Source: an uncultured virus (IMG/VR IMGVR_UViG_3300027406_000071)
Lineage: Duplodnaviria > Heunggongvirae > Uroviricota > Caudoviricetes
Virus record (IMG/VR): IMGVR_UViG_3300027406_000071
DNA: 64,000 nt
Strand: one strand, 5' to 3'
In this document: positions 3,208-63,894 of the stretch, one piece after another
Layout of the letters: each line of letters opens with the position of its first letter
How positions within the stretch are numbered: the first letter of the stretch is position 1
Translations under genes and position numbers: made by a program
Notes under the pieces: generated by a model
The model's input: only the letters and a program-made list of their open reading frames with translations
Database searches by the model: none
What the model was told of the DNA's origin: nothing

Positions 3208-3208
3208 A

Positions 3209-3976: not shown

Positions 3977-3987
3977 TTTATAATTGT

Positions 3988-11700: not shown

Positions 11701-13455
11701 TATTGGTGTTACACCTGAAGTTCCATCTATACCATTAATTCCTGAAGTTCCATCTTCTCCTTTAATACCTGAAGTTCCATCAACTCCTGAAGTTCCATCT
11801 GCACCAGAAGTTCCATCTACTCCAGATGTTCCATCTTCACCGCCAACATTTGGTAAAGTAGCACCATCACCGTTCGTATAAACAATTATCATGTTACCAT
11901 CGTCGTCTATTGTAATAGAAGAGATTCCTCTACCATCAACACCATCGGCACCTGTAGCTCCATCATCACCTTTAATACCTGGTATACCAGTTAAGTTGAT
12001 ATTCCAATTAGAACTAAATGAAGATTCTGTACTTTGATAAACGTTATTCCACATCATTACACCAGTAGAACTATCATATGAAGTTACTTGTACTATATCA
12101 AAATCATCCGGACTGGCATCTAAAGATACTATAACGTATTCACCACCTTGATATGATAAACCAGTATCTACTGTTACCGAACCTAAATCTTGGTTACCTG
12201 GATTTCTGTCTTCACCGAGACTATGTGGACCATTAAATGAAGTTGCAAATTCTATTGAATCTCCATCTGTTCCAGAAGTTCCATCTACACCAGAAGTTCC
12301 AGCGTTTCCATCAACTCCTGAAGTTCCATTAATACCAGAAGTTCCATCTATACCAGAAGTTCCATCTATACCAGAAGTTCCACTAACTCCATCGATACCA
12401 GAAGTTCCATCGATACCAGAAGTTCCATTGATACCAGAAGTTCCATTAACTCCATCTTCACCATCTTCTCCATTAGAACCATCTTTTCCTGATGTTCCAT
12501 CAACTCCTGATGTTCCATTAACACCGTCATTTCCTGAAGTTCCAGCGAGTCCATTAATACCAGAAGTTCCATTACTACCAGAAGTTCCATCGTTTCCATC
12601 AACTCCTGATGTTCCATCTGCTCCTGTTTGACCAGGTACACTACTTAGATTAATAATCCAAGGACCGTTACTATTTAATAAGTTACCGTTATTTGATACG
12701 TGTGAAAATGTTAATTGCGTATTACTGTAAGCAGTTACTATTGCAATTTGTACATTAGTCATATCTAATGGTTGTGTAATCGAAATATATTCGCCACCTA
12801 TATAAGATAATCCAGGATCTACTGTTAAAGTACCGTTTGCATTATTTGAGTGTATATCAGTTGAAGTAGTCATGAAATTTACTGAGGATCCATCTACACC
12901 TGAAGTTCCATCGTTCCCATTTACTCCTTGTGCTCCATCAGCTCCATCTACACCTGAAGTTCCATCAGCTCCGCTTTCTCCAGATAATGATAATTCTACC
13001 CAACATCCATTAGGATCATTAGATATTCCTATATCTGCAGCCGTTTTTTGTTCAGCAGTAAAACCATTTGCTGGAGTTGCACCCGCAGCACAGTAAGTTC
13101 CTGCAGGATCTATTCTTAATGCTCTTTCCCATTCTGGTAAAGCTAACCAATCAGCTTCTCCTAAATCACCACCGTTTCCAAAGAAACCAACGGGAATTAA
13201 ATTAAATATTTTTTTATCTTCTACAACATGAATCATCATACCAACTCTTCTTCTACCTGATGACCAAATGTCATCCGATATTGTAAAACCTGTATATGTT
13301 GAAACTCCATTTTCAAAAAGAGGTATACTATTTCTTTCTCCAACTGTTATCATTTCTTGATAACCACCCTTTTGTGCGATAGAATGTATTAAACCTTCAG
13401 ATGGTGCTGAATGAGATAAAAAGTTAACTCTTTGTATTCCTTGTGGTAAAGCCAT
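8722..13455 (-). CDS. Giant collagen-like (GTSGxx) fibre/appendage protein
   Basis: Long Gly-X-Y runs, about 12 TP[IV]K[GD]EDY knobs, N-terminal domain shared with 13564-15465 and 17011-20604. Confidence 0.85.
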
Positions 13456-15493: not shown

Positions 15494-16966
15494 TTAGCTA
15501 TTTACAACGTAAACTATAGGTAATTCAATAGTCATTGGAACAGTGTTTAATTTATACAAATTATAATTAGTTCCATTTGGTCCAACAAATGCTAATTTTT
15601 CTGAACAATTATCTGCTGGTGCTCCATCGATTTCAAATCTTTTATGAACTGTTAAGTCATCACCTATCATATCTACTGGAATTGCTAGCCAATAGAAGTT
15701 AGCTGAACTACTTGCCGGAATTGTAAAACTAGTACCATCAACTATTTCAGATAGTGAGTTTACTTGTTCATATGATCCAGGGTTAGCTAACATATCTGCG
15801 AATGATTCATCATAATTAGCAGCTACACTATTATCAGCTTTATATAAAGTTCCTCCAATTAGATCTTGTGCGTAAGGATATCCTCCTGATCCTAAGTGGA
15901 AGTAATATGCATCAGCTTGTTCTGGTTCTGGCGTTGCAGTTGGTGGAACTGGCGTTGCAGTCGGTTCAGCTGTTGGAACTGGCGTTGCAGTTGGTTCAGC
16001 TGTTGGAACTGGCGTTGCAGTTGGTGGAACTGGCGTTGCAGTTGGATCTGGTGGACATTCTGTCCATTGTAAAACTTTAGTAGCTACACCTTCAGATCCT
16101 ATAGTAACCCAGAAGTAATTTGTAGGTTCTGATGATGGTGTTTCAGAATTCCACCAAAGGAATCCACTATTTGTAAAGAATTCATCTCCATTTTGATCTG
16201 CGTAAAATACGTTTCCAACTTCAGGCATAGTTAACGCCTCTTCTTCAGCGGTCCATAATACATATGGTCTAGCTTCGTCTCCTGCTTGATGAGATACACC
16301 ACTAATATCTTGTGCATTACAGAAGAAATCACGATGTTCTTCTTCATTCTTATCAAGTAATCCATTTATGAATTCTTCAGGTTCACCTGCCATTAGATTC
16401 CATCCAGAAACAACATGTCTCTGTGGTTGTAATAATAATGGTTCAGCAGTCGGAACTGGCGTTGCAGTTGGTATTGCAGTCGGAACTGGCGTTGCAGTTG
16501 GATCTGGTATAGCTGTTGCTGTAGGATCTGGAACTGGCGTTGCAGTCGGATCTGGTATAGCTGTTGCTGTAGGATCTGGAACTGGCGTTGCAGTCGGATC
16601 TGGCACTGGCGTTGCAGTCGGATCTGGCACTGGCGTTGCAGTTGGAACTGCAGTCGGAGCTGGTGTCGCAGTTGGCGAAGGAGTATTGGCATTAACAGTT
16701 AAAACATTAGTAAAAGTTTCACAACCATTTCCGTCGACTATTTTTATTTTATAATCACCTGCAACAACTCCACTGTTACCTGAATAATCTGTAGCGTTTC
16801 CAAAAGTAAATGAGTTTGATACAACTGAATTTACAGGATTTTGAAACGTCGGATATGCGTTTTGTGGTACAGGTAAATTATTCCCTGCGTTCAATAAAGT
16901 ATACTGGTAAGGTCCGACTCCTCCAGATACTGTTACTGATACTGTTCCATTTGTAATGTTTGCCAT
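15494..16966 (-). CDS. PT-repeat protein with SprB-repeat-like N-domain and C-domain shared with 20622-21848
   Basis: VSGGVGPYQY...GDYKIKIVDGNGC; tandem PDPTATPV; YYFHLG...NFYWLAIP. Confidence 0.75.
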   Translation of the reverse strand: MANITNGTVSVTVSGGVGPYQYTLLNAGNNLPVPQNAYPTFQNPVNSVVSNSFTFGNATDYSGNSGVVAGDYKIKIVDGNGCETFTNVLTVNANTPSPTATPAPTAVPTATPVPDPTATPVPDPTATPVPDPTATAIPDPTATPVPDPTATAIPDPTATPVPTAIPTATPVPTAEPLLLQPQRHVVSGWNLMAGEPEEFINGLLDKNEEEHRDFFCNAQDISGVSHQAGDEARPYVLWTAEEEALTMPEVGNVFYADQNGDEFFTNSGFLWWNSETPSSEPTNYFWVTIGSEGVATKVLQWTECPPDPTATPVPPTATPVPTAEPTATPVPTAEPTATPVPPTATPEPEQADAYYFHLGSGGYPYAQDLIGGTLYKADNSVAANYDESFADMLANPGSYEQVNSLSEIVDGTSFTIPASSSANFYWLAIPVDMIGDDLTVHKRFEIDGAPADNCSEKLAFVGPNGTNYNLYKLNTVPMTIELPIVYVVNS

Positions 16967-17010: not shown

Positions 17011-20000
17011 TTATCCGCAATAAAGGTATCCATAAACGCCTTCTGCTTTGCCATTTCCATCAAAATTAACAGATGACATACATTTACCTACTGTAAATGA
17101 ATTAATCACTTGTCTTTCTTCATATTGTGGAGTGCCATCTTCAATGTTAACAACTGCATATTCAACTGGTTGTTTCATAAGATAACCTGGTGTATCTGAA
17201 GAACATAAAAGGTCTCCAATAGCTACTTCACCATTTTGATTACATACTTTCATACCTAATAGCGATCCTTCAATTGAATCACCTAATGAAGCAACTCTCC
17301 AAATAGTTTTAGTATCTCTATCAGCTTCTGCTAATTTAACACCAAATGAATCTCTATAATGATGATCTTTTTCTACATATACTCTAGGTTCACTAAAGTG
17401 TTTATCTAATGGACTTGGTTTTAAAGAATAATCAACTTCTAGCCATAAAATACCAACTATACCAGTATCTTTTGCAGAATCTGCTTTTACTAATTCATTA
17501 TTATTATCTAATTTAACTAAATCTCCACTTTCGATAGAAACATCATTTCTTTTAACGTATGCGTGAGAAAGTGTCGCCAATTGGCCTCCACGGCCTTCAT
17601 CGGTTTCTTCACTTAGTTCACTATCGGTTCTTGCATCTTCTTTATATTTTGAAAATGTTTCTTCACCAATAATAACATCCTCGTACAATGCAAGTTTAGA
17701 TACACCATCTACAACTTTGGTTTGAAAGAATCCACTAGCTAAAACTCCACCAATCTTTGCATCACCTGCAATATCAATATCACCTTTAAATTTAGCATCA
17801 CCAGCAGGTGAGATATAAAAAGTTGGAGCGTTGATAGCATCATTATCTAAATTAATGGCCATTCCGTTAGGCGAATATGTTGTCCAATCAGCACCCGCTA
17901 AATTGAAGTCTCCACTTTTTAGGACACCTGTAGTTATTTTACTACCATCAATAGTAGTAGATGTAGTTAAATATTGACTAGTATCTGGGGCAGGACCAGT
18001 TGCTCCTTTATCACCTTTTGGTCCAGCATCACCTTTAGCACCTGCACTACCTTGAGCACCTGTTGCACCCTTTATAAGTGACCATGTATATTTTGTATGG
18101 TCGTTTGAATCTTCTAGTGTTTGATCAGTATATTGACCGATATAATCTCTATTTGTAGAATCGTCTACACTAAAATTTGAAGCTCCATTTGAACTGTTAG
18201 CATAAGCTATGTGTAAATATGAAGTTAGACCATTTTGACCGTTTGTTCCTGCAATACCATCTGCACCATTTGCACCATTTGCACCTTTAACTAGTGCCCA
18301 TTTCCATTTTGAATCTCCAGCTCCAGCATCATTTGGATCATAGTCAACATAAGTTCCTATATAATCTTTTCCAGCAGGTGATTGGCTAAATCCACCACCA
18401 TTTTCATTATCAGCATACGCTATATGGAAATATGAACTTATTCCAGCATCACCTTTACCACCAGTTTCACCTTTAAGACCTTCTAAACCTCTTGGTCCGG
18501 CATCACCTTTTCCACCAGTTGGTCCAGCAATACCCTGAGCTCCACCTGCTCCTTGAATTCCTTGTAAACCTTGTGCACCATTACTACCTTTTTCACCTTG
18601 ATCACCTTTTTCACCTTGATCACCCTTAATTAATGACCATGTATAATCAGAATGGTTGTTAGATTCTGTACTTGTTGTTTTGTTAAAAGCAAAACCAATA
18701 TATTTTTTATTTGTAGGTGAATTACTAAAGCCAGTAGAACCATCTCCAGAATCAGCATATCTAATCCAAGTATATGTTGGTTCACCGTTTACTCCATCTG
18801 CACCTCTAATACCATCAGCACCATCGGCACCATCTTGTCCAACTAATGAATTAAGGAAATCAGTAGTAGTTCCTGTATTTCCAGAGGCTAACCATGCATT
18901 ATATGCACTATCTCCATCAGCACCATCTTGACCATCTACACCATCAAAATAATCTACGCCCTTAACAGGAATATATCCATCAGCACCATCCTGACCGTCA
19001 GCTCCTTTAATTAATGACCATGTATAGTTTGTATGGTTGTTTGAATCTTCTAGAACATAATCAGTATATTGACCAATATAATCTTTACCTGCAGAATCGC
19101 TAATATCAAAGTCTAAACCTGTTGTATTATTAGCATAAGCTATGTGTAAGTATGTAGTTTGTCCATTTTCACCATCTATTCCTGGTATACCGTTTTCACC
19201 ATCTACTCCGTCTACACCTTTAACTAATTGCCATTTCCATAATGGAGAATTGAAACCTGCATCGTCAGACACATCATCAACATAAGTACCTATATAATCT
19301 TTTCCGGCAGCTTGTTGGCTAAATCCTCCACCTGATGCATCATCAGCGTAACCTATATGGAAATAAGTTTGTACACCATCAAGACCTTTAGGACCTGGAA
19401 TACCATCTTCACCTTTATCACCTTGTAAACCGGCAAGACCTTGATCACCTTTATCACCTTTATCACCCTTGATTTTTGTCCATAAATATACATTTGGATC
19501 TGTAGAATCTGCTAAATTAAAATCAGTATATTGTCCAATGTATAATTTATTATCTGAATCAGTTACACTAAAACCGCTCTGGCCGTTTGAATCGTTTGCA
19601 TATGCTAAGTGTAAGTATGAAGTTTGTCCATTTTCACCATCTATTCCTGGTATACCGTTTTCGCCATCTGCTCCATCGATACCTTTAATCAATGCCCATT
19701 TCCATAAAGATGAATTTGGTAAAGCATCATCTTCTATACCATCGACATAAGTACCTATATACTCTTTTCCGGCAGCATCTTGACTAAAACCTCCACCTGA
19801 TGAATCATTAGCATAAGCTATATGAAAATAAGTTGGTAATCCATCATCACCTTTTGGACCTTGAATTCCATCAGCACCATCATTACCTTGTAAACCATCT
19901 AAACCTGAATCACCTGTGTCACCTTTTTCACCCTTTATCTGTGACCATGTATATTTAGTATGATCTAAAGATCCATTAGGATTAAAATCAGTGTATTGGC

Positions 20001-20604
20001 CGATATACAATTTATCGTTAGATTCTGTTTTAGAAAAACCAGAACCATTTATATCATTTGCGTATGCTATATGTATATATGAATTAAGACCATCTACTCC
20101 TGGTGAACCATCTAAACCATTAACACCTACTGGCAATTCAACCCAAGAAGAATTAGCATCCGGAGCAATTCCTAAATCAGCTGCTGTTTTTATCACAGCG
20201 GTAAATCCATTTAAAGGACTTGCAGACTCTGAAGTGAATGCTCCAGAAGGATCCATTCTTAATGCTCTTTCCCATTCTGGTAATGCCAACCATTCTTCTT
20301 TTCCTAAATCACCTTCATTTCCAAAGAAACCAATAGGAATTAAGTTGTATAATTTTCTATCTTCAACGACATATATCATCATTCCTACTCTTCTTCTACC
20401 AGTTGACCACACATCATTAGATTGTGTAAATCCATCATAAACGGCACCGGTTATATTTAAGAATGATTTAATATTATTTCTATCTTCCTTGGTTAACATT
20501 TCTTGATATCCACCCTTTAATGTAATAGAATGTAAAATTCCATCAGTAGTTTCTGCTGGTGAGAAAAAACCCGATCTAGATATTCCTTGTGGTAATAGGC
20601 TCAT
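17011..20604 (-). CDS. Tail-fibre/antireceptor-like protein with collagen segments and a peptidase G2/chaperone-like C-terminus
   Basis: Eight ~50-aa YxHIAYA...YIG...W.xIKG repeats between collagen tracts; C-terminal KVCNQNG..IGDLLCSS..PGY. Confidence 0.75.
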   Translation of the reverse strand: MSLLPQGISRSGFFSPAETTDGILHSITLKGGYQEMLTKEDRNNIKSFLNITGAVYDGFTQSNDVWSTGRRRVGMMIYVVEDRKLYNLIPIGFFGNEGDLGKEEWLALPEWERALRMDPSGAFTSESASPLNGFTAVIKTAADLGIAPDANSSWVELPVGVNGLDGSPGVDGLNSYIHIAYANDINGSGFSKTESNDKLYIGQYTDFNPNGSLDHTKYTWSQIKGEKGDTGDSGLDGLQGNDGADGIQGPKGDDGLPTYFHIAYANDSSGGGFSQDAAGKEYIGTYVDGIEDDALPNSSLWKWALIKGIDGADGENGIPGIDGENGQTSYLHLAYANDSNGQSGFSVTDSDNKLYIGQYTDFNLADSTDPNVYLWTKIKGDKGDKGDQGLAGLQGDKGEDGIPGPKGLDGVQTYFHIGYADDASGGGFSQQAAGKDYIGTYVDDVSDDAGFNSPLWKWQLVKGVDGVDGENGIPGIDGENGQTTYLHIAYANNTTGLDFDISDSAGKDYIGQYTDYVLEDSNNHTNYTWSLIKGADGQDGADGYIPVKGVDYFDGVDGQDGADGDSAYNAWLASGNTGTTTDFLNSLVGQDGADGADGIRGADGVNGEPTYTWIRYADSGDGSTGFSNSPTNKKYIGFAFNKTTSTESNNHSDYTWSLIKGDQGEKGDQGEKGSNGAQGLQGIQGAGGAQGIAGPTGGKGDAGPRGLEGLKGETGGKGDAGISSYFHIAYADNENGGGFSQSPAGKDYIGTYVDYDPNDAGAGDSKWKWALVKGANGANGADGIAGTNGQNGLTSYLHIAYANSSNGASNFSVDDSTNRDYIGQYTDQTLEDSNDHTKYTWSLIKGATGAQGSAGAKGDAGPKGDKGATGPAPDTSQYLTTSTTIDGSKITTGVLKSGDFNLAGADWTTYSPNGMAINLDNDAINAPTFYISPAGDAKFKGDIDIAGDAKIGGVLASGFFQTKVVDGVSKLALYEDVIIGEETFSKYKEDARTDSELSEETDEGRGGQLATLSHAYVKRNDVSIESGDLVKLDNNNELVKADSAKDTGIVGILWLEVDYSLKPSPLDKHFSEPRVYVEKDHHYRDSFGVKLAEADRDTKTIWRVASLGDSIEGSLLGMKVCNQNGEVAIGDLLCSSDTPGYLMKQPVEYAVVNIEDGTPQYEERQVINSFTVGKCMSSVNFDGNGKAEGVYGYLYCG

Positions 20605-31998: not shown

Positions 31999-32745
31999 TT
32001 AAATATTTTTTAAATTATTTACAAGCCAGTCTAATTCTACTTGACTACCTGAATCTGAGATGGCATTTTCAGGATCTGGGTGTGTTTCAACGAACACTCC
32101 ATCATATTCAAATATACGAGCTGCTTGAGAATATTGCTTTGCCAATTTACGACTTCCTCCTGTAATACCGTCACCTGCCATTTGAGTAGAGTGTGTACAA
32201 TCAAAGATAACTTTGTCTGCAAATTCTTTCATTACATCAACACCTCTAAAATCTACAATTAATCTATCATATCCAAAGTTAGAACCTCTTTCAGTAAGCC
32301 AAACTTGACAATTAGGATTTACTTCTTTAATTTTAGTAACAGCATGTTTCATAGCATCTGCCGATAACCACTGTCCTTTCTTAACATTAATAGTATTGAA
32401 ATGTTTTGCACACTCTACTAATAGATCTGTTTGTCTACATAAGAATGCTGGAATTTGAATTACATCTACCACATCAGATAATGGTAATGCTTGACTTGTT
32501 TCATGAATGTCAGTAACTATTTTAATATCAGGAAATCTATCTTTGACATTTCTCATAATATTAATACCTTCGTCCAAACCTGGACCTCTATTAGAGTGAA
32601 TTGAAGTTCTATTAGCTTTATCGAAACTGCCTTTAAGATACCAATCTTTTCCATTCATTAATGGATAAAGTGTTTCAGCAACTAACATGAAGTTGTCCTC
32701 GTTCTCAATACTACAAGGACCTAGTATGTATGTGTAATCTTGCAT
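31999..32745 (-). CDS. kdsA: 3-deoxy-D-manno-octulosonate 8-phosphate synthase
   Basis: GPCSIE, KGSFDKANRTS, QIPAFLCRQTDLL, NVKKGQ, ERG, DCTHS, ETHP...SD. Confidence 0.95.
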   Translation of the reverse strand: MQDYTYILGPCSIENEDNFMLVAETLYPLMNGKDWYLKGSFDKANRTSIHSNRGPGLDEGINIMRNVKDRFPDIKIVTDIHETSQALPLSDVVDVIQIPAFLCRQTDLLVECAKHFNTINVKKGQWLSADAMKHAVTKIKEVNPNCQVWLTERGSNFGYDRLIVDFRGVDVMKEFADKVIFDCTHSTQMAGDGITGGSRKLAKQYSQAARIFEYDGVFVETHPDPENAISDSGSQVELDWLVNNLKNI

Positions 32746-40890: not shown

Positions 40891-41628
40891 TTATTTTTTT
40901 ATGGTTTTAAATGTTTTAACAAATTGGCCATTAGTAACTTGTAAGAGATAAACACCTTGTGGTAATGAAGATAGATCCATTTGAAATTGTACCCATCCTG
41001 CAAAGAATCTTTTACTTTCTTTTAAAAATTCTGAACCATTATAGTTTAATACTCTGACAATATAATCGCCATTGTCTGGTACTGTCAGGTCAAATGTAAT
41101 TGGACCTTTTGTTGGAACTGGATAAACAATTCCATAAATACCATCAGTTGGCCTAGTATCAAATGGCATTGATCGTTTATTCACATAGCCATCTGTGTTT
41201 TCAACATCAATATCCCATCCTAATTCTGTGCCAGCTGTTTTTCTACCAATCGTAATTGGAATTGTGTCCCAATCTTGATTAGTAACCCTAAATCTTACCG
41301 TAAATAATTCTGTTGTATTAATTATAGTAAAATTACCGAAGGAAGCGTCATAACCGCCCCATCTAACAGTTTCACCTTCCCAGTCCATAGTATATGTTAA
41401 CCACTCTTGAGCTTTAGGTGTCACAGTAATCGATACAAACTCTAAATAGTCTGGATCATAGTTCAATGCAAATTCTAAACTACCAACATCTTCGCCTGAA
41501 GTTTCAATTTCTACAGGCAGATTAATAAACTCACTTACAGGCACATCAATCTCAGGTACGTTAAATACGACCTGAGATTGTGCACATGTGGTGAACAATA
41601 CTAATATTGTTAGTAGTATATTCCTCAT
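40891..41628 (-). CDS. Cohesin-like domain protein with T9SS type A C-terminal sorting domain
   Basis: Signal peptide; SLEFALNYDP...LFTVRF; VYPVPT...DLSSLPQGVYLLQV...FKTIKK. Confidence 0.8.
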   Translation of the reverse strand: MRNILLTILVLFTTCAQSQVVFNVPEIDVPVSEFINLPVEIETSGEDVGSLEFALNYDPDYLEFVSITVTPKAQEWLTYTMDWEGETVRWGGYDASFGNFTIINTTELFTVRFRVTNQDWDTIPITIGRKTAGTELGWDIDVENTDGYVNKRSMPFDTRPTDGIYGIVYPVPTKGPITFDLTVPDNGDYIVRVLNYNGSEFLKESKRFFAGWVQFQMDLSSLPQGVYLLQVTNGQFVKTFKTIKK

Positions 41629-44106: not shown

Positions 44107-45384
44107 ATGCTGAAATACTCAATGATAGCCTTTCTGGGGCTTTTTCTAGTTACTAGCGCATATGCGCAAACTTGTGATTTAACACTCATAAGTCAAACAC
44201 CACCTGTCACAACAGAAGATGACCATTCTTTTGTAATTGAATTTGTTAATGCAGAAAACTGTGGATGTAATGAATTTACTCAGTGGGATGAAAATACTTG
44301 CGATGGCAATGGATCTAGTTCCGTAAATAATAATGAAAATGTATCTCATCTTGTTTTTGGTATTCATTATGTAAATGAAATCACTGGAGAAGACTTAGGA
44401 GAAAACACAGATTGTACTTCTACAACATTTCATCCAGGTTGGTCATATACTAATGTTACAAATTGGGGTGGTTGGGAAACTGGAGATGTCGTTACTATTA
44501 ATATAAATCCACCATTTGCCTGGGAGTGTATTTTAGCCACGCCCCTTGAGGGATATTGTTGGGAAGTAGTAATATGGCAGATTAATCTTTCTCAAACTGC
44601 GGGTTATGATGATTTTCCAGATAACGGATGGACTGTTGGTAATAGTTTTAATCAAACGCAAACATATCCTGATATTAATATAGATGATAATAGAATAGCT
44701 GTTTGTTATGATCCTTGTGTACCTGACACTATAATCGAATACATTACTGATACGATTTATATAGAAACTATTGATACTCTTTATGTAACTGATACTATTA
44801 TTGAATATGTAGACAATTTTATTACTGATACTCTTTATGTAGAAACCATTGACACAGTATATGTTGATGTTGAAGTTTTCGTTGAGGTTTTTATCACCGA
44901 TACTATTACTGAAATTGAGTACATTACAGAATATGTTACTGACACTCTTTTTATTACAACTGTCGATACAGTTGAAGTTATTGTATATGAATTCTTAACA
45001 GATACGGTTTATGAGTATATTTCTATTGATTGTGAAACTGGATTAGAATGTATTGATGATCCTGGTTTAGTTTGCCCAGATTGGACTTCAGTTTATCTTC
45101 CAAATACATTTACACCAAATAATGATGGTTTAAACGATACATGGAAAATGGTTTATGATTTAGATTGTTGGGTAGATGTAGAATTTAAAATATTTAATAG
45201 ATGGGGAGACATGATCTACTCTGGTAAGGGTGATTATTATGATTCATATCCTTATTGGGATGGTAGTGTCAATGGTGGTGATCACTATGCTACCGATGGA
45301 GTTTACACATATACATTCTACGCTAAGAAATTTGGATCTACAGAAGTATTCCAAAGACACGGGCACATAACAATATTTAGATAA
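44107..45384 (+). CDS. Secreted protein with DT-repeat stalk and T9SS type B (gliding-motility-associated) C-terminal domain
   Basis: Signal peptide; YLPNTFTPNNDGLND, IFNRWG, WDG, GVYTY, GHITIFR. Confidence 0.85.
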   Translation: MLKYSMIAFLGLFLVTSAYAQTCDLTLISQTPPVTTEDDHSFVIEFVNAENCGCNEFTQWDENTCDGNGSSSVNNNENVSHLVFGIHYVNEITGEDLGENTDCTSTTFHPGWSYTNVTNWGGWETGDVVTININPPFAWECILATPLEGYCWEVVIWQINLSQTAGYDDFPDNGWTVGNSFNQTQTYPDINIDDNRIAVCYDPCVPDTIIEYITDTIYIETIDTLYVTDTIIEYVDNFITDTLYVETIDTVYVDVEVFVEVFITDTITEIEYITEYVTDTLFITTVDTVEVIVYEFLTDTVYEYISIDCETGLECIDDPGLVCPDWTSVYLPNTFTPNNDGLNDTWKMVYDLDCWVDVEFKIFNRWGDMIYSGKGDYYDSYPYWDGSVNGGDHYATDGVYTYTFYAKKFGSTEVFQRHGHITIFR

Positions 45385-46377: not shown

Positions 46378-47022
46378 TTATTCTTCTTTACCGTTCCAAT
46401 CTCCATCTTTTAATTTAAATGACCAGAAGGATTTACCTTTAGTGTTTTCATTTGGAAAATCAAAGGAGATTGATCTATGTTTTCCACCATCTTCTATCCA
46501 AGATAGAGTCTTAATAAAATTAGAAGGTATTCTTGCTGGATCTGAATTAGTAGTCCATTCTTCTGAAAAATAAATAGTAATATCAACTTCAATGTCATCG
46601 TATATTGCAGCTAAATCTCTTTCAAATCCTTCTAATGCAGCCCACGCTCCTCTATTTAAATTCTGATGTTGTAATGCACAATTAGTATAAGTAAATGTAG
46701 TTTCTAACCATTCCTTTTTACATGAGAATGTATTTGCTGGCGCCATGTGACCTTTATCCCATACATTATCACTATAATCTGAAGAAGATGATGTTTTAAT
46801 ACCTTCTACTTTTGTAAAGCTTATGCCATGTCTAGGATATGATGGTGCAGTTGCATCACAAATAACAGTATATTTTACCATTAATGGTTGTTGATATGTT
46901 TGTGAATATGTAATTTCGTAGATATCTGTTTTTACATCTATGATATTTAATTCATCTTCTTGTGCACTAATTAATGTGCTAAATGCAACAAATGCTGCAA
47001 TAAAAAAAATCTTGTAGTTCAT
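46378..47022 (-). CDS. Secreted DNA/RNA non-specific endonuclease (NucA family)
   Basis: Signal peptide; DKGHMAP, NCALQHQNLNRGAWAALE, IPSNFIK. Confidence 0.9.
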   Translation of the reverse strand: MNYKIFFIAAFVAFSTLISAQEDELNIIDVKTDIYEITYSQTYQQPLMVKYTVICDATAPSYPRHGISFTKVEGIKTSSSSDYSDNVWDKGHMAPANTFSCKKEWLETTFTYTNCALQHQNLNRGAWAALEGFERDLAAIYDDIEVDITIYFSEEWTTNSDPARIPSNFIKTLSWIEDGGKHRSISFDFPNENTKGKSFWSFKLKDGDWNGKEE

Positions 47023-47912
47023 TATTTTATTTGTTTTACCCATGATAGTAGGTTGGTTTCGGGTTTCCAATTTAATGTCTCTTTTATTTTACTAATATCT
47101 GCTACTGATCTTTTAGGTTCTAATCTTTCTTCTATATGTGTAATAATTCCACCAAAAGCTTCGGCTAAATCCATAACACTAGTTTCCTGACCTGATGCAA
47201 CATTCATTATTTTAATTCCGTCATTATCAGTACTATTATAGGCATCAATACACGCAGAAACCACATCACCAACATAAACCCAATCTCTGGTTTGTTGGCC
47301 ATCACCAGTAACAGTAATTGGTTTAAAAGATTCAAATTGATTTAAGAAAATAGGAACAGCACTTAAATAACCACCTTCATTTCTTTGACCTTCTCCATAA
47401 ACATTAAAGAATCTTAATGCAGTGCCTTTAAAGGGATTAGTTTTAAATTCATCTTCTAATAGTAATTCAGTCATTCTTTTTGCTCTTGCGTATGGACTAA
47501 TAGGATTAATTGCACCAGATTCTTTATATGGTAAATTATCTGAGTCTCCATAAATTGCAGCAGTAGATGCGATAATAATATTTTTGTTACCTTGTTTTAA
47601 AGACCACTCAACCATATTAGTTGTACCTCCAACAATTTCTTCATAGTATTTACTAGGATTACTCAAACTTTCTTCAACAGAAACAGGAGCCGCAAGATGA
47701 AATAATGCATCATGTTGTATTTCCCATGTTTGAATAATTGGATTATGTATGTGTTCTTCTATAAAGTCACACCCTAAATCTTTAATGTTGTCTATAGATC
47801 CAGTACTAAAATTATCTATAACAGTTACTTGCCATCCTAGATTTAAAAGTCTTTTTACTAAATGTGTGCCAATAAAACCTGCACCTCCTGTTACTATTGC
47901 TCTTTTACTCAT
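47022..47912 (-). CDS. NAD-dependent sugar epimerase (UDP-glucose 4-epimerase-like)
   Basis: TGGAGFIG, ASTAAIYG, YARAK, RFFNVYG, RDWVYV. Confidence 0.9.
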   Translation of the reverse strand: MSKRAIVTGGAGFIGTHLVKRLLNLGWQVTVIDNFSTGSIDNIKDLGCDFIEEHIHNPIIQTWEIQHDALFHLAAPVSVEESLSNPSKYYEEIVGGTTNMVEWSLKQGNKNIIIASTAAIYGDSDNLPYKESGAINPISPYARAKRMTELLLEDEFKTNPFKGTALRFFNVYGEGQRNEGGYLSAVPIFLNQFESFKPITVTGDGQQTRDWVYVGDVVSACIDAYNSTDNDGIKIMNVASGQETSVMDLAEAFGGIITHIEERLEPKRSVADISKIKETLNWKPETNLLSWVKQIK

Positions 47913-47913
47913 T

Positions 47914-50900
47914 CTATTTATTTTCTATTAATACACCGTGAAGGTGATTATTTATTACATCTATTACTCTATCTGATCCAATTTGTTTTGTACATTCAAA
48001 TTGTCTTTTAGTTCCTTTCCATGCTGGACACCAATTCCAATCACCTTTGTCAAATGTATCCCATCCCCAGCAACCATGACATACTTGATGATTGTTAATA
48101 TAGATAGCATCTTTAAATTCCACATAAGGATCAGTAAAACCACTTATAATGCAGGTTTTAGTTCCAAGTGCCCAAGCGAACCAAGACAAGCCAGAGGAAA
48201 TTCCAATAAACATGTCCGCGTTATTAATTGCTTTAGCAACCTCTTCTAAAGATTCTGGCAACTGTTCGATGCCAGTCAATTCACTACCTTCGCTCGAAGC
48301 ATGGGAAACGGAAATATTATTTTTATTTGCCCAATCTATAACCTCTTGCCAACCAGTTGGATTATTCCAATACTTGGCTTGTGCTGTTGATTGAGTTGCT
48401 ATAACTAAACTTGGATTTCGCGCGCTGTTTGAGGTCTTTTTCAAGAATTCAGATGCCAACTTAGGTCTCTGTTCTTGATACTCAACTCCAATTCTATCAG
48501 CAGCGATTTTACCCAGACTTATAGTTCTCCAATCGTATTTGTGCTCGTGTCTTTTCCAAGGCTCTTCCATGGTATAAAAGACTCCAACGGTCATTAGCGC
48601 TCCCTTTGTAGGCTCTGACCAGTCTAAGAATTCAACACCTCTTTCCAAGTACCATGCATGATCAAACAGCCAGGGTTTGTGTGTCTTCACGTATAATCGT
48701 GTTGGCTTGTGTGTATACATCACTGCGTGTAACTGTCCCATAAACGATATGGTGTCTCCGAGTGATGAGCTCGCCATTTCTATGGTCAGCTCTTGGTCTT
48801 CGAGTGTTAGTGTCTCTTCGTAAATCAGTCGATCGTTACTCAAAATCTTTACAGTCCACTCTGTCCACCAGTGTCTTGATGGCTGATACCAATGGCCGCG
48901 TTTCATGTTATCTACACTGTAGATCAGATCCTCTCCGTCCCAGAATTCGGCTCTCAGTGGCTCGTCACCTACTTCTTCACATGTTATGCGTGGGCCATCA
49001 ATGTACTCTAATCTCCATCGAGGAGCTTTGGCTATTGGTTTGGCTCTCGGGGTCTCTAAACAGGTTTGGTACCACTCTATATGTTGTTGCTTGAAGCGTT
49101 CTAGATCATCATCTGGGATATTTTTTCCTTGATCCTTTGATGATTTGAGTGTTTTGATTAATTGATCAACATTTTCATGGAGGTCGTTAGAGAATGGAAC
49201 TATGTAAGGTGTAAACATGTCCTTATATTGTTCTAAGTCCCTAGAGAATGTAATTAATCCACTCCCAATTGCTTCACGCAATGCTAATGGACTACACTCC
49301 CATGTTGAGTTAAACATAAATGCGTCACATGCACTCATAAATGTTTCTACGTTTGATTGTTCACCCCAAACTTTGACATTACTGGGTAGATTTTCCATAA
49401 TTGGTCCCCAATATTTCTGAAAGTTTTCAGCTTGATTACCTACAAAGTGGAATTCAAATTCTCCTGGACATTGTGCTTCTACAACTCTAGCAATATCAAC
49501 ACCTTCTTTTTGGTTTTTACCAGAAGTCCATAAACCCACATTTAAAATATGCTTCTTGTCTATTGACAATCCTAGTTTACCTCTTGCTTTTGCTCTTTCT
49601 AAAGTTGAGGGTTTGGTATCAATAATAGGATATTCAATAACTGGCTTTAAACCATTTCTATTTGCGAAAGTCTCTAAATGATATGGTGTACATAAAGCGT
49701 ACATATCTGGATCATTTATTTTATTATCTGGATTAAACCAAATATTGTGGCAAGTTTCTACTACTTTCCATTTTTTATTGTATAACCAATCCATTGCAGA
49801 TTGATCTAATTTATTAAAACTATCAAAAGATTCTGGACACTCATCTATGTGAATAATATCTGGATCTATTTCAGATATTTTATCCATTAGTTTTTGACCT
49901 CTTTCTGTAATATCTATAGATTGTAAGAATGCAATAGTATGAAAGTTATTGCCTAGTTTTTCTATTAATTGATCTCTTTGTACATTATAGATATTACTAT
50001 ATTGTGTATACTCTATTAAGTGAACTTCATATTCTGAAACATCGAGCATCGCTTCTACTCTTTTCAATACAAACTGTGGCATTCCACCTGTACTTAAATG
50101 TGGTGCTAAGAATAATAGTTTCTTTTTAGTTTCCATGCTTTCTGTTTTTTGATTTATTGGTAGATCATCATATAAATCTAAAACAGCATTATATGTTTTA
50201 TCTACTGATGGATGACATTCAAATGTAGGTTTATTTTCTAAACAATAAATTTGAGGTGGAATGGCTTGAATAGTATTATGTTCCTTAACATTATATTTCA
50301 TGTTACTAGAACAAAATATATCACATCCACCTGCAATATATTTATATTTATAATCTTGTGTACCCTTTCTATATGGTGCTCTTAATTTAGGATCTATAGA
50401 ACTGCCTAATTGAATAATATTAACATCAGTTGTTCCTGCAATATGAAGTAAGCCCGAATCCATTGTAATTATAGCTCGAGCTTTATGATTCATCATCCAT
50501 CGTAATTCTGCTGGATCATTAGTAGGATCATTAAGTAAATTAACACCTAAATTAATATTTAAATCCATTACTGGTTTATCTACTGAAAATGTTCCTACTT
50601 CTTTTGAATCTCGTCCTACTGCAACTACAGGAATTCCTTTTGAATTTAATCTATCAACTAATTCTTGCCATTTATGTTGGTCCCATGTTCTAGTTGGCCA
50701 AGTATGTGTAGGATGAATTATAACATAATCTTCATGTCCTAATTCTCTTTCTCTTTCAATATACAAATCCATTTCCATTTCTTCTTGAGTTAAACTAAAC
50801 CCTAAAGATATGGCATGGAATTGTCTAATGTCTGTGTTCGATGATCTAAATTCTACTTTCTCACCCCTTAAATCATATGCTTTACCAACAATTGGCATAA

Positions 50901-51117
50901 ATGTACGATACACTTTAATTGATGGATCGTTTCTAAGAGGATCATCTAATTTTAGTGCTTTAGAAACTAGTGGATGATTTTCAAATAAAAATGGTTTACT
51001 AGAGAAAACTATAAGTTGCGACTCGTATGCCTTTGACAATTTCCTAAGAGTAGGAATTGCGGCTAAAGTATCACCTAACGCTGGTGTGTCAATACATATT
51101 GCAACCTGTTTTGACAT
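47914..51117 (-). CDS. Three-domain glycosyltransferase: GT9-like + GT4-like + Aah/TibC-like protein O-heptosyltransferase
   Basis: LGDTL...MDSGLLHIA; HLSTGGMPQ...KNQ...ECSPLALREA; SSSLGDTI...AQAKYWN...SSGLSWFAW...CHGCW...WCP...FEC. Confidence 0.85.
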   Translation of the reverse strand: MSKQVAICIDTPALGDTLAAIPTLRKLSKAYESQLIVFSSKPFLFENHPLVSKALKLDDPLRNDPSIKVYRTFMPIVGKAYDLRGEKVEFRSSNTDIRQFHAISLGFSLTQEEMEMDLYIERERELGHEDYVIIHPTHTWPTRTWDQHKWQELVDRLNSKGIPVVAVGRDSKEVGTFSVDKPVMDLNINLGVNLLNDPTNDPAELRWMMNHKARAIITMDSGLLHIAGTTDVNIIQLGSSIDPKLRAPYRKGTQDYKYKYIAGGCDIFCSSNMKYNVKEHNTIQAIPPQIYCLENKPTFECHPSVDKTYNAVLDLYDDLPINQKTESMETKKKLLFLAPHLSTGGMPQFVLKRVEAMLDVSEYEVHLIEYTQYSNIYNVQRDQLIEKLGNNFHTIAFLQSIDITERGQKLMDKISEIDPDIIHIDECPESFDSFNKLDQSAMDWLYNKKWKVVETCHNIWFNPDNKINDPDMYALCTPYHLETFANRNGLKPVIEYPIIDTKPSTLERAKARGKLGLSIDKKHILNVGLWTSGKNQKEGVDIARVVEAQCPGEFEFHFVGNQAENFQKYWGPIMENLPSNVKVWGEQSNVETFMSACDAFMFNSTWECSPLALREAIGSGLITFSRDLEQYKDMFTPYIVPFSNDLHENVDQLIKTLKSSKDQGKNIPDDDLERFKQQHIEWYQTCLETPRAKPIAKAPRWRLEYIDGPRITCEEVGDEPLRAEFWDGEDLIYSVDNMKRGHWYQPSRHWWTEWTVKILSNDRLIYEETLTLEDQELTIEMASSSLGDTISFMGQLHAVMYTHKPTRLYVKTHKPWLFDHAWYLERGVEFLDWSEPTKGALMTVGVFYTMEEPWKRHEHKYDWRTISLGKIAADRIGVEYQEQRPKLASEFLKKTSNSARNPSLVIATQSTAQAKYWNNPTGWQEVIDWANKNNISVSHASSEGSELTGIEQLPESLEEVAKAINNADMFIGISSGLSWFAWALGTKTCIISGFTDPYVEFKDAIYINNHQVCHGCWGWDTFDKGDWNWCPAWKGTKRQFECTKQIGSDRVIDVINNHLHGVLIENK

Positions 51118-60839: not shown

Positions 60840-61691
60840 TTATTCATATGCTTTAGGGTTAGGTAATCCACTGTAATAATCCCAATCTTTTAAATCATCT
60901 CTGTGGATAGGTACATTCCATTTAGGATCATACCAAAATCTACGGTTCTTAGAATCTATACGAGTATCCATCATTTTGTTTCCATAACACAACATAAATT
61001 TTTCTTGAATTGCGTTTTCGCCAAATGGATTATCCCAATCTTTGATGCTTCCACCGCCCTTTGCGTATGCCAACATTGGAATATCTGTACATAATTCTAG
61101 TATTTTTGGGTACTTTGCAATTTGTTGTGCTGCCGGAAGAAATGGATCAACATCACCTGCTCTAAAAATAATTTCAGCTCTTAGATAATTACCAATACCA
61201 TTAAACCATTTTTGATCCATAAGAACCTCATATAATGGTTTACGAAATGTTTTTTTAGTTAGATTTGTCATGATATTCAAAAAGAATTCACGTGGTTCTG
61301 TTGTTGGATCTGGACCTCTTCCTTCATTCCAACTCAAACCTTGTGTCCATTTACCAAAACGTCTAACATCTACAAATGACAATGTTGTTCCATCTTTTCT
61401 ATAAAATTTAAGATGTGCGTGTTTGTCTTCTTGTCCAGTGTTAGTAGTTCTAAAATGACCACTCATACCCATAGTAATACGTATAGGAATAGTTGCTTCA
61501 CTATCATCATCTTTGATAGTTAATATGATCTCTTTACCTTTACTTTCTGAAGTTAGTGTAAAATATTTAAATGGGATATCTAATTCTGCCCCTTTGTGTT
61601 GAGGATTCTTTTTTACATTTGTGTAAATCATTCCACTTGATGCTTGATTTACATAGTCTGATGTTAATTTAAGTTCGGCTAGTTCTGGCAT
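60840..61691 (-). CDS. Fpg/Nei DNA glycosylase (NEIL1-like, no Zn finger)
   Basis: MPELAE, KGK, MGMSG, DVRRFG, H2TH GIGNYLRAEI; no CxxC pairs at the C-terminus. Confidence 0.9.
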   Translation of the reverse strand: MPELAELKLTSDYVNQASSGMIYTNVKKNPQHKGAELDIPFKYFTLTSESKGKEIILTIKDDDSEATIPIRITMGMSGHFRTTNTGQEDKHAHLKFYRKDGTTLSFVDVRRFGKWTQGLSWNEGRGPDPTTEPREFFLNIMTNLTKKTFRKPLYEVLMDQKWFNGIGNYLRAEIIFRAGDVDPFLPAAQQIAKYPKILELCTDIPMLAYAKGGGSIKDWDNPFGENAIQEKFMLCYGNKMMDTRIDSKNRRFWYDPKWNVPIHRDDLKDWDYYSGLPNPKAYE

Positions 61692-61994: not shown

Positions 61995-62567
61995 CTAATG
62001 GTGAATTAATATATGATCATCGAAATATTGATCAAACATTTTGTTCCATTCTTTAGTTTCCATTAATGTAATATGTAGATTTTTACCATCTGGAAATGCA
62101 TTACTTGATAATCCCTTTGGAATGGTGAATATAACTACACCGTCATCTGCTAAATAAGATTTCATTTCAGATAATAATTCCGGTAACTCTTCTAATGGCA
62201 CATGTTCTAAAACTTCTGTACACATTATAATATCGAATGTTCCTGTTGGTTTTTTACAATATTCTGGGTGGGCAGGATCATATCTATAAAATCCTCTTAA
62301 TCTTGAACCAAAGTGTTCACTAGCAGTTTTACGTTCTTTAACTCCTGGAATTGGCACTTTTTTTGTCCAATGTACTCCAGTTCCAGATCCAAAATCTAAG
62401 ATAGTACCGCTACCTCTTTTATCTAATTCATATTCTAATTCGCCATATATCTTTTGAATTCCGCCCCCATCAAAAACTGTTTTTTCTTTTAACGTGACCA
62501 TTTTACCATTTCTTAAAAATGGTTTACCTTCAAAAATGTCTTTGTAATATTTTAGATATTTACTCAT
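61995..62567 (-). CDS. Class I SAM-dependent methyltransferase
   Basis: ILDFGSGTG, YDP, FDIIMCTEVLEHVP. Confidence 0.9.
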   Translation of the reverse strand: MSKYLKYYKDIFEGKPFLRNGKMVTLKEKTVFDGGGIQKIYGELEYELDKRGSGTILDFGSGTGVHWTKKVPIPGVKERKTASEHFGSRLRGFYRYDPAHPEYCKKPTGTFDIIMCTEVLEHVPLEELPELLSEMKSYLADDGVVIFTIPKGLSSNAFPDGKNLHITLMETKEWNKMFDQYFDDHILIHH

Positions 62568-62675: not shown

Positions 62676-62700
62676 AAAAAAGCCTCTCGTTTGAGAGGCT
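62676..62700 (-). terminator. Intrinsic terminator after tRNA-Ala
   Basis: agcctctc-N4-gagaggct followed by U-tract on the - strand. Confidence 0.85.
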
Positions 62701-62707
62701 AATTTCG

Positions 62708-62815
<108 letters not shown>

Positions 62816-62825
62816 AATAAAAAAA

Positions 62826-63224
62826 GGAAGGATCGTGTACTAAGGTATACTAGCCTTAGAAGATCGACTTATTGTGTTGATTACTGCATACCAATCAACT
62901 TTACTATTATTTCAAGTTCTACTCAAGATGGTTAAATCTCGTTGTAGTGCCACAACGGCTTTGATTGTACTTTATCCCCTAATAAGACAGGATGTTCAGT
63001 CACTTAGGCAAGGCTTCCTCTCGGGTACTTGCAATGCTCTTAGAAAGATTAGTTTAGATATCTTTCCCGATCTACCACCTTCTACTCTGTCGAGTCTTAG
63101 TTACGCACTTTTGCAACTAAGCCGGAACTTGTCCGATGTCTAGTGTGCCTTAATCCCTCTTTCCGTCAGGATTTTTTCGGCAATACACTCACATTATCAA
63201 TGATCAATATCTAATGTGCCTTCC
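62826..63224 (-). ncRNA. Candidate ~400-nt highly structured non-coding RNA
   Basis: Ends pair (GGAAGG/CCUUCC); ten or more hairpins, GNRA loops, G-U pairs favour the - strand; no credible ORF. Confidence 0.75.
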
Positions 63225-63279
63225 AATATTTTAAAGAACGTTTCCTTGGTACTTTATATATACCAATTAATATTTGGTA

Positions 63280-63456
63280 CTATGCTTTGTTTGCTGCACT
63301 TACTGCAACTCTTACGTCTTGTGCTAATCCTTTGATTACTTGCATAGCCTTACGTACTCTTGTACCTGCTGCTTTGTTTCCTTTTTCTGAGAATTTTGCT
63401 GCATCCTCTTGGATGTTAGTCAATTCTTCTTGGATTTGATTTAATAATTCTGTCAT
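63280..63456 (-). CDS. Hc1-like histone-like protein (58 aa, absent from ORF track)
   Basis: DAAKFSEKGNKAAGTRVRKAMQVIKGLAQDVR. Confidence 0.85.
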   Translation of the reverse strand: MTELLNQIQEELTNIQEDAAKFSEKGNKAAGTRVRKAMQVIKGLAQDVRVAVSAANKA

Positions 63457-63726: not shown

Positions 63727-63894
63727 TTATTGTTTTTTTAATAAGATCCATAAAAATAAATATACTAGTGAGCTTGATGGAACTAATAAGAATATGATTC
63801 TCCATGCGAGTGCTGATGTATCTGACCATCTTGCGATTCCTCCACAAACTCCTCCTAAATACCTATTGTTTTTATTTCTTTTTATTGTTGTCAT
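63727..63894 (-). CDS. pspC: PspC-domain membrane protein (55 aa, absent from ORF track)
   Basis: KRNKNNRYLGGVCGGIA...WRIIFL...VYLFLWIL. Confidence 0.8.
   Translation of the reverse strand: MTTIKRNKNNRYLGGVCGGIARWSDTSALAWRIIFLLVPSSSLVYLFLWILLKKQ

Follow-up and report, generated by a model that had tools for sequence, protein, structure and literature searches.

A two-domain structured RNA gene with a manA-like 3' half beside Hc1 and tRNA-Ala genes of an uncultured marine T4-like phage

The 64,000-nucleotide stretch analysed here, from the uncultured Caudoviricetes record IMGVR_UViG_3300027406_000071 (hereafter the window), carries a structured non-coding RNA gene on its minus strand at positions 62826-63224. 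Read along that strand, the locus comprises an open reading frame (ORF) for a histone-H1-like Hc1 protein, a small hairpin, a conserved leader, GGAAGG, about 390 nt of RNA, CCUUCC, a U7 tract, a hairpin followed by U8, tRNA-Ala(UGC) and a terminator. A first-pass annotation had flagged the stretch as an unannotated, ornate RNA upstream of the tRNA, and had proposed that GGAAGG (63224-63219) pairs with CCUUCC (62831-62826) directly ahead of the U7 tract (62825-62819); position and ends proved to be as claimed. Likewise, the stretch is richer in G+C than its surroundings, as had been noted, with values of 0.395-0.435 within the RNA vs about 0.26-0.37 in the flanks. The features of the locus are as follows.

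63280-63456, minus strand: Hc1 histone-H1-like gene, 58 aa (Pfam Hc1, E 6.3e-21)
63246-63266, minus strand: hairpin UUGGUA/UACCAA, located behind the stop codon of Hc1 and ahead of the RNA; compared with relatives by eye
63225-63247, minus strand: conserved leader; its last part, GUUCUUURAAAUAUU, occurs in all relatives, even behind a tRNA in locus L261
63219-63224, minus strand: 5' strand of the outer helix, GGAAGG, covarying with the 3' strand
62830-63218, minus strand: putative mature RNA of 389 nt, from adapter-tagged contig ends in RNA runs (contigs, not raw reads)
63008-63218, minus strand: 5' domain, helices P2-P8 with two GNRA-capped hairpins and an apical loop holding UGAUCA, from covariation
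62886-63006, minus strand: manA-like core, H3 plus a three-hairpin junction (H4, H4a, H4b, H4c), 32 pairs, from covariation
62835-63023, minus strand: sub-threshold match to the full Rfam manA model (RF01745), 32.7 bits, E 1.4e-6, in an 801-nt search with permissive filters
62832-62868, minus strand: 3' stem P9 (GUCG/CGAU) enclosing hairpin P10 (CUAAGG/CCUUAG, loop holding GUAUAC), with compensatory changes
62826-62831, minus strand: 3' strand of the outer helix, CCUUCC, from the alignment and pair counts
62819-62825, minus strand: U7 tract, read from the sequence; lacking in the group of L259, L266 and L307
62782-62813, minus strand: terminator-like hairpin with U8, abutting the tRNA, read from the sequence and not listed by the consensus scan
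62707-62781, minus strand: tRNA-Ala(UGC), downstream of the RNA
62681-62700, minus strand: intrinsic terminator behind the tRNA, from a terminator scan

The flagged stretch is a genuine structured non-coding RNA gene. Folding of the single sequence gave -109.4 kcal/mol (z = -3.08), a value not attained by any of 100 shuffled sequences. No reading frame is conserved across the ~390 nt; as the longest stop-free stretches of the relatives lie on different strands and in different frames and vary in length, the RNA is considered non-coding. An antisense ORF of 89 aa (62874-63143, plus strand) was rejected, as it is not conserved in the relatives. At Rfam gathering thresholds the tRNA was the sole match in the whole window, leaving the RNA without an assigned family as the first-pass annotation had stated; Rfam 15 holds no family covering it, and in the literature on manA, ROOL and GOLLD RNAs we found neither a long manA variant nor the ~390-nt RNA described. 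The lack of RNase P, tmRNA and group I motifs was equally confirmed, with no match to any of these families even at E<=10 (801-nt and 291-nt scans). The same scans bear on the proposal that the RNA is a short variant of GOLLD or ROOL. Its context is indeed alike: both are large, many-helix phage or prophage RNAs found near tRNAs, the adjoining tRNA is confirmed here, and the fold is ornate. Moreover, GOLLD and ROOL reportedly self-assemble in vitro, according to a cryo-EM preprint. Neither was among the matches at E<=10, however, manA being the sole family match, and the RNA is shorter and has a manA-like core, which leaves this assignment with hardly any probability.

Relatives were collected by two routes. 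Homologues of the neighbouring methyltransferase were gathered together with their surrounding DNA from viral and metagenome contigs, where an nhmmer search placed the RNA at 10 metagenome loci; searching the viral collection for invariant family motifs, in four scans, provided 7 viral contigs besides the window's own. The family comprises 15 further distinct homologues in uncultured marine phage contigs, i.e. 16 distinct sequences in all with 75-99% identity, three of the 16 aligned sequences being cut by a contig end. One contig (L001) is identical to the window across the RNA, and the methyltransferase as a single query retrieved the same phage only. Two 5'-half motifs matched 8 family contigs and two 3'-half motifs matched 7 each (8 contigs overall), and the 5' and 3' domains co-occur in 8/8 viral contigs; as the motifs of both halves match the same contigs, the two halves always travel together. 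One RNA copy is present in each of three carrier records. Searches further afield were negative: distant-mode blastn with 901 nt against 50,697 phage records returned the tRNA plus one 74% match to the Hc1 gene and nothing over the RNA, and the nearest record (G001) lacks the RNA region. An 18-nt family motif had 43 matches in 185,579 prokaryote genomes, compared with ~69 estimated by chance, none of which extends past the motif; a second motif scan of the viral contigs gave 19 loci, the 12 outside the family showing no nhmmer match. The best matches outside the family came from LR756500.1 and LR745206.1, metagenomic "huge phage" records of 462 and 635 kb, one of which matches the Hc1 gene at 74% and the other the tRNA-Ala at 91%.

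Comparative covariation, which the first-pass annotation had named as a check, is the decisive test of the structure, and it is clearly present. RNAalifold applied to the first ten sequences yielded 96 pairs, 18 of them with compensatory changes, and the model was then curated by hand. The final model, built on an alignment of the 16 distinct sequences (A5), holds 100 pairs in 19 helices. Its partners are complementary in 96.3% of cells vs 34.8-45.6% when they are slid along the alignment, and 30 pairs changed on both sides, a number reached by none of 500 shuffles (mean 14.7) and compared with 1-7 in the slid controls. An unbiased all-against-all listing of covariation was swamped by shared ancestry and uninformative. 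Compensatory changes affect 4/5 pairs of P4, 6/9 of P5, 3/6 of P10 and two pairs of P9, and covariation is also seen in P2, P3, P6 and P7; P8 (GCAAG/CUUGC) is invariant and hence provides no information of this kind. The outer helix reads AAGAGG/CCUCUU in L264, with A-U for G-C at two pairs, and AGAAGG/CCUUCU in L259, L266 and L307 when compared by eye, the same group scoring G-U when aligned to the model columns. The outer stem is longer in the L259 group. Beyond the six pairs, the leader pairs weakly with the U-rich trailer, extending the outer stem to about 11-13 bp with a mismatch or internal loop.

When the 13 helices named in the first-pass annotation are viewed in the alignment of relatives, ten are kept: the outer helix, CACAUUA/UAAUGUG, AAUCC/GGAUU, CGGA/UCCG, CUUAGUU/AACUAAG, ACUC-GACA-GAGU, the invariant GCAAG/CUUGC, CC-GAGA-GG, CUAAGG/CCUUAG and the closing pair. 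The other three had to be given up. UAGAU/AUCUA is complementary in the window, yet it is not conserved and its place is taken by the covarying GGGAAAGAU/AUCUUUCU; CGUUGUG/UACAACG is not conserved either and is replaced by the covarying GCC(G)/(U)GGC plus CUAC/GUAG; and GUUGAUU/AAUCAAC, which RNAalifold and the minimum free energy (MFE) fold also contain, builds up mismatches without compensation and gives way to the covarying CAAUC/GAUUG. The GNRA loops of the 5' domain vary within their class (GACA, GGCA or GAAA on P6, GAGA or GAAA on P8), and two apical loops hold the self-complementary words UGAUCA (GAUC in L264) and GUAUAC. Two candidate long-range contacts were rejected: a kissing contact of the hairpin loop CAAGU with AACUUG in the core, in which the variable loop position changes without compensation (by eye), and pairing of the loop UUGAUCA with a GAUC further 3', for which L178 and L307 alter one side only.

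The 3' half of the RNA resembles the manA RNA motif (Rfam RF01745; Weinberg et al. 2010, PMC2864571). The match in the window scores 32.7 bits and stays short of the gathering cut-off of 55.2, and the strong Rfam hit that would have removed the novelty was not found, as all matches lie below this value. Matches at the same place were obtained in 11/14 homologue loci with 24.8-34.4 bits, and three whole phage records each have manA as their single match, with per-record E values of 2.4e-8 to 2.8e-6, while 0/14 control genomes match. For comparison, true manA RNAs reached 152-195 bits in 15/20 loci picked by core motif. The likeness extends to the secondary structure, a hairpin framed by GUGAC...UAAGGU followed by a junction that one stem closes and that contains three hairpins; this arrangement is kept in the family. 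All five core helices are present, and the pairs are 100% formed in 5/6 helices counted (the H3 outer stem being counted separately); of the 32 core pairs, 96% of cells are paired and 10 pairs are compensatory, which 0/500 shuffles reach, and 16 core pairs coincide with those of the Rfam manA alignment produced by cmscan. The manA model pairs CAAUC with GAUUG and thereby closes the three-hairpin junction, a helix proposed by neither MFE nor RNAalifold. In the family this helix shows double changes at three pairs (CAAUC/GAUUG, CAACU/AGUUG, UGACU/AGUUA), with U-A/C-G becoming C-G/U-A or C-G/U-G, and C-G becoming U-A in L307. Finally, GUGACYGAAUA, GGGGAUAAGGU, AGAAC and GGUAUGCAGUAAUC are common to both families; they are (nearly) invariant and match upper-case positions of the Rfam consensus. 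Here GGUAUGCAGUAAUC compares with GGUAuacAguAAUCC of manA; it recalls the loop of the last manA hairpin, yet in this family it directly follows the junction.

Transcripts were sought in public assemblies, and the RNA is present in six metatranscriptome runs (X1, X10 and X17-X20), each from a different study, among 20 listed runs containing the stretch. Four RNA runs (X1, X10, X18 and X19) were compared over a 6.5-kb region that includes the RNA. A contig of 809 nt in X1, identical in sequence and covering Hc1, the RNA and part of the tRNA, has a depth of 570 vs 2.7-6.8 in seven flanking contigs that are identical or nearly so; in X10, depth over the interior of the RNA reaches 4114 vs 203 over the Hc1 region and 4-15 in the flanks. 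Depths of 298 and 187 over the RNA vs 0-5 in the flanks were found in X19, and summed depths of 474-487 vs 21-80 in X18. The RNA contigs are thus about 10- to 400-fold deeper than the flanking phage genes, which is a strong hint rather than a measurement, and the excess is inexplicable by evenly spread contaminating DNA.

Some of these contigs end in letters that we take to be sequencing adapter. Among the loose ends listed, two sequence variants (X10 and X19) show adapter joined to an insert whose first base is the C that follows GGAAGG, and adapter follows L001 position 2738 in X18 and X19; together these ends suggest a 389-nt species spanning window positions 63218 to 62830. All four informative adapter ends are oriented as for a minus-strand RNA, presumably in a dUTP-type library, which is weakly consistent with this species. 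Across the outer helix, the two apparent cuts are staggered by 2 bp, so that each product would carry a 3' overhang of 2 nt. Staggered cuts with such overhangs are the geometry of RNase III, and we infer an RNase III-like activity. A similar arrangement is known from rRNA precursors, in which sequences flanking the mature RNA pair with each other and the resulting processing stems are cut by RNase III. As there, the flanks of the family RNA pair and the apparent cuts are offset by 2 bp; unlike there, the stem is short, with 6 bp (up to 11-13 bp with mismatches), and the ends derive from loose contig ends only. Species 1 and 2, the stable RNAs encoded in the tRNA gene cluster of phage T4, offer a second precedent: they are cut from tRNA precursor transcripts and are much smaller than the family RNA, the likeness consisting in a T4-like phage, a stable RNA beside tRNA genes and release by processing.

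Downstream of the RNA the locus varies considerably among relatives. A tRNA follows after 9 to about 360 nt in 11/15 homologue loci (12/16 counting the window); the four homologue loci without a following tRNA consist of a contig that stops at the RNA and three loci in which other sequence follows for 500-640 nt. The RNA may be followed by the terminator-like hairpin and then a tRNA, by a tRNA about 9-12 nt away (L184, L261), by a spacer of 175-220 nt, or by other sequence. The hairpin with U8 is present only in the window, L179 and L178 among the relatives compared, and in L261 tRNA-Ala and tRNA-Gly immediately flank the RNA on its two sides. These data speak to whether the RNA is a cis-acting leader or riboswitch, in which a ligand would choose between the outer helix with its U tract (or the next hairpin) and read-through into tRNA-Ala. 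A role of this kind was first proposed for manA, which Rfam files as cis-regulatory and a riboswitch candidate, and the U7 tract and terminator-like hairpin between RNA and tRNA in the window would suit it. Terminated leaders can, moreover, be abundant in RNA sequencing (RNA-seq). However, the sequence linking the RNA to the following gene is not conserved, which counts against a leader or riboswitch: the U tract is lacking in L259, L266 and L307, the tRNA abuts the RNA in L184 and L261, and other loci have long spacers. Instead of a constant 5'-untranslated region (5'-UTR) position with an expression platform, the loci variously have a hairpin followed by a tRNA, a tRNA that abuts the RNA, a spacer of 175-360 nt, or no tRNA at all. 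The position between two tRNAs in L261 and the apparent 3' end, which precedes the U tract, add to this, and with 390 nt and 19 helices the RNA is far larger than known aptamers. Consequently, we regard a leader as very improbable.

Six loci (L182, L189, L195, L183, L181 and L197) contain an insert of 170-220 nt between the RNA and tRNA-Ala, with AT-rich hairpins and the conserved word ...GATATATAATTATGTACCAACC... This word resembles the stretch just upstream of the RNA and may represent a repeated promoter or processing signal for RNA genes. On the upstream side, TATATAAAGTACCAAGG was considered as a repeated promoter and rejected, as it occurs once in the window, at chance level, and its arms form a hairpin with compensatory changes in relatives. 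By eye, the arms of the UUGGUA/UACCAA hairpin read CUUAGUAC/GUACUAAG in L189, GGUUA/UAACC in L259 and AACGAG/CUCGUU in L264. In the window, UACCAA, UUGGUA and UACCAA succeed one another behind the Hc1 stop codon (63246-63279), allowing two mutually exclusive hairpins, of which only the second was compared with relatives. Other genes beside the RNA module encode an Fpg/Nei-type DNA glycosylase (60840-61691, minus strand), an S-adenosylmethionine (SAM) methyltransferase (61995-62567, minus strand; PHROG "methyltransferase", with a weaker tRNA methyltransferase match) and a 55-aa PspC-domain protein (63727-63894, minus strand).

The upstream neighbour, by comparison, is constant. The Hc1 gene precedes the RNA in 13/13 homologue loci with upstream sequence (tblastn; 14/14 counting the window), at a distance of 37-57 nt in 12/13 and of 147 nt in L261, where a tRNA-Ala lies between. 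No Hc1 gene was found beside canonical manA in 117 manA-pattern loci. This linkage raises the prospect that the RNA mainly binds or holds back the Hc1 protein encoded on the same transcript, as a scaffold, sponge or antidote. The directly upstream position in every locus with upstream sequence argues for such a role, as do contigs of the RNA runs that bridge Hc1 and the RNA (X1 record 4, X19 record 24, X10 record 11), and the absence of Hc1 from the flanks of the canonical loci makes the pairing specific to this family. Gene order alone is weak evidence, however, and a bridging contig is no proof of a single transcript; as the main function of the RNA, holding Hc1 is improbable in our view, albeit compatible with, rather than exclusive of, the explanation preferred below.

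The RNA is carried by large phages. Two long carrier contigs (212 kb and 179 kb, with an estimated completeness of 76% and 59%) both encode a T4-type major capsid protein gp23 (PF07068, E about 1e-46), which is thus present in 2/3 carrier records; from the capsid type and the completeness estimates, the carriers appear to be T4-like phages of roughly 280-300 kb. The carriers of manA are likewise T4-like. The window also encodes Por_Secre_tail and CHU_C domains and a SprB repeat (40891-41628, minus strand; 44107-45384, plus strand; 15494-16966, minus strand), an unusual cargo for a phage. To our knowledge, type IX secretion is found only in Bacteroidota and their close kin, and because the phage encodes sorting domains of this system its host is likely a member of the Bacteroidota. 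Searches of the phage records by tblastn with the methyltransferase and an ATPase were uninformative on the host. Two further proteins of 1577 and 1197 aa (8722-13455 and 17011-20604, both minus strand) consist mostly of collagen triple-helix repeats (Pfam Collagen, E 1e-118 and 1e-26) and are probably fibres. Sugar and envelope genes (2323-6771, 31999-32745 and 47022-51117, minus strand) encode two NAD-dependent epimerases/dehydratases, a GlcNAc transferase, an HtrL/YibB-like protein, a DAHP/KDO8P-synthase family protein and a 1067-aa fusion of heptosyltransferase and group-1 glycosyltransferase domains.

In summary, the combined data are best explained, with a probability of about 60%, by a gene for a stable, very abundant, trans-acting structured RNA of an uncultured clade of marine T4-like giant phages, most likely with manA-like self-assembly. 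The RNA would originate from a transcription unit comprising Hc1, the RNA and the tRNA. Its flanks would pair into the outer stem, staggered RNase III-like cuts would release a species of ~389 nt (63218-62830), and this species would fold into the manA-like 3' core plus a family-specific 5' domain of ~210 nt with seven helices. No action as a 5'-UTR switch is envisaged; rather, the RNA may be a self-assembling structural RNA, by analogy with the decamers and 60-mer cages formed by manA in vitro. The extra domain could supply further contact loops, two of the GNRA type and two bearing palindromes, and joint action with the basic Hc1 protein encoded alongside is possible. Of this picture, the fold and its conservation, the order of the genes and the occurrence in RNA libraries are demonstrated; homology to manA, the processing sites, action in trans and self-assembly are deduced. 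Stability, processing and action in trans are the three properties most likely to apply, with some support here; self-assembly, perhaps together with Hc1, goes beyond that and is argued from analogy.

Several observations weigh against this explanation. No manA match was obtained at E<=0.1 in 3/14 homologue loci, and every manA match of the family is below 55.2 bits. The P8 hairpin of manA is absent, its region aligning with non-pairs, and the Rfam closing stem as drawn by cmscan (CUAAG/CUUAG) is not conserved and was rejected on covariation. The terminal hairpin expected to present GGUAUGCAGUAAUC, corresponding to the GGUA...AAUCC loop of manA, is not kept, as its helix GUUGAUU/AAUCAAC shows no compensation. 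A covariance model of the family core (R1) gave 5 weak partial matches of 14-20 bits in 100 manA-pattern loci, and one noise match in 72 further loci. A model of the canonical manA core (R3), conversely, finds the family at the right place in 6/16 sources only, with 13.9-16.1 bits and E 0.05-0.17, just over noise at 8.8-11.8 bits. The contact loops named in the preprint on manA assembly (L5-L7' and L8-L9') are without clear counterpart in the 16 sequences, given a mapping of these loops onto the Rfam model that is our own. Six-base palindromes in loops are to be expected occasionally by chance. As to expression, the depths rest on assembled contigs with one figure each, from runs chosen because they hold the RNA, a method ill-suited to ranking genes, and the contig ends concern 24 listed out of 113 loose ends.

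Some of these points would equally suit an independent new RNA class, in which the likeness of the 3' half to manA is convergent or due to chance, reflecting a common three-hairpin junction and a few short motifs. All Rfam manA scores lie below the cut-off and reciprocal detection is weak at best, with R3 reaching 13.9-16.1 bits only; nhmmer with the window RNA and the family profile found no match in the 117 manA-pattern loci; and manA has nothing that corresponds to the 5' half, the 3' end or the linkage to Hc1. Chance and convergence sit less easily with manA matches at the same place in 11/14 loci, with their being the sole match in three whole phage records at E 1e-6 to 1e-8, and with a helix that the manA model predicted and that was later shown to covary. 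Furthermore, several conserved motifs occur in the same order, and both families reside in T4-like phages and beside tRNAs. A wholly independent class is therefore unlikely, and homology of the 3' core to manA seems reasonably probable. For the 5' half the picture differs: the 5' domain (63008-63218) has no Rfam match at E<=10 (291-nt scan), and a model of it (R2) run against 100 and then 62 sources returned the window itself plus one marginal match of 18 bits overlapping a manA. Judged by these searches, the ~210 nt at the 5' end are a domain found only in this family. The suggestion of a new class made in the first-pass annotation thus holds for the 5' domain and for the lack of an Rfam family at the gathering score. 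It does not hold for the RNA as a whole, whose 3' half is, by the comparisons above, consistently manA-like, albeit below threshold.

The preferred explanation, a trans-acting RNA with a manA-like core, draws its structural analogy from recent work. According to a preprint, manA RNAs assemble in vitro into decamers and into an icosahedral cage of 60 subunits, held by kissing loops and a GNRA-receptor contact, and manA variants have a common core and differ in their peripheral helices (10.64898/2026.07.01.735769). The family RNA is alike in its GUGAC...UAAGGU-framed hairpin followed by a three-hairpin junction, in conserved motifs of the same order, and in its occurrence in T4-like phages of marine samples, where some copies of each abut tRNAs (four verified copies for canonical manA). 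It differs in being twice as long, with the ~210-nt 5' domain absent from canonical manA loci; in lacking the P8 hairpin and the closing stem of manA while having its own outer stem and 3' stem-loop; and in scoring 24.8-34.4 bits as opposed to 152-195 for true manA. It is, moreover, always linked to Hc1 and not located in a 5' UTR, and its likely host phylum would be Bacteroidota, not cyanobacteria.

Canonical manA loci provided some observations of their own. In L009, L038, L010, L027, L011 and L008, the loop of a P8-like hairpin is complementary by eye to that of the last hairpin, and these loops co-vary between variants (UACUGUA with UACAG..., CAUGUA with UACAU...), which fits the L8-L9' contact as described in the preprint. 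The loop pairs visible are GUGGUG with ACCA and UACUGUA with UACAGUA, the correspondence between loop names in the preprint and the Rfam model being again our own reading. The canonical copies L009, L030, L038 and L053 (164-177 bits) end 0-14 nt before a tRNA on the same strand; they were chosen because a tRNA had been seen and give no frequency. Across the 117 manA-pattern loci, 10 have a tRNA in a flank, 7 of these tRNAs being directly downstream.

A bolder version of the self-assembly hypothesis may be considered, in which the two-domain manA relative forms a larger or differently shaped RNA-only shell, is produced at very high levels during infection, is cut from the Hc1-RNA-tRNA transcript and acts with Hc1, for example as an RNA-protein compartment or as a decoy capturing a host factor. 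We consider this version speculative and rather doubtful. If true, a protein partner could for the first time be named, and a maturation pathway defined, for a manA-type RNA. What manA RNAs do biologically has been an open question since 2010, and the preprint of July 2026 reports RNA-only cages in vitro and, in its accessible part, gives no cellular role. The present family offers handles that go beyond canonical manA: strong indications that the RNA accumulates in natural metatranscriptomes, ends that appear to be defined and lie in a flanking stem, a genomic position ruling out a simple 5'-UTR switch, an invariable Hc1 neighbour and the mutable loops of an extra 210-nt domain. It would carry the range of manA-type RNAs beyond cyanophages, into another lineage of T4-like giant phages, and, as a natural "manA plus one domain" construct, may reveal how peripheral helices set the geometry of assembly.

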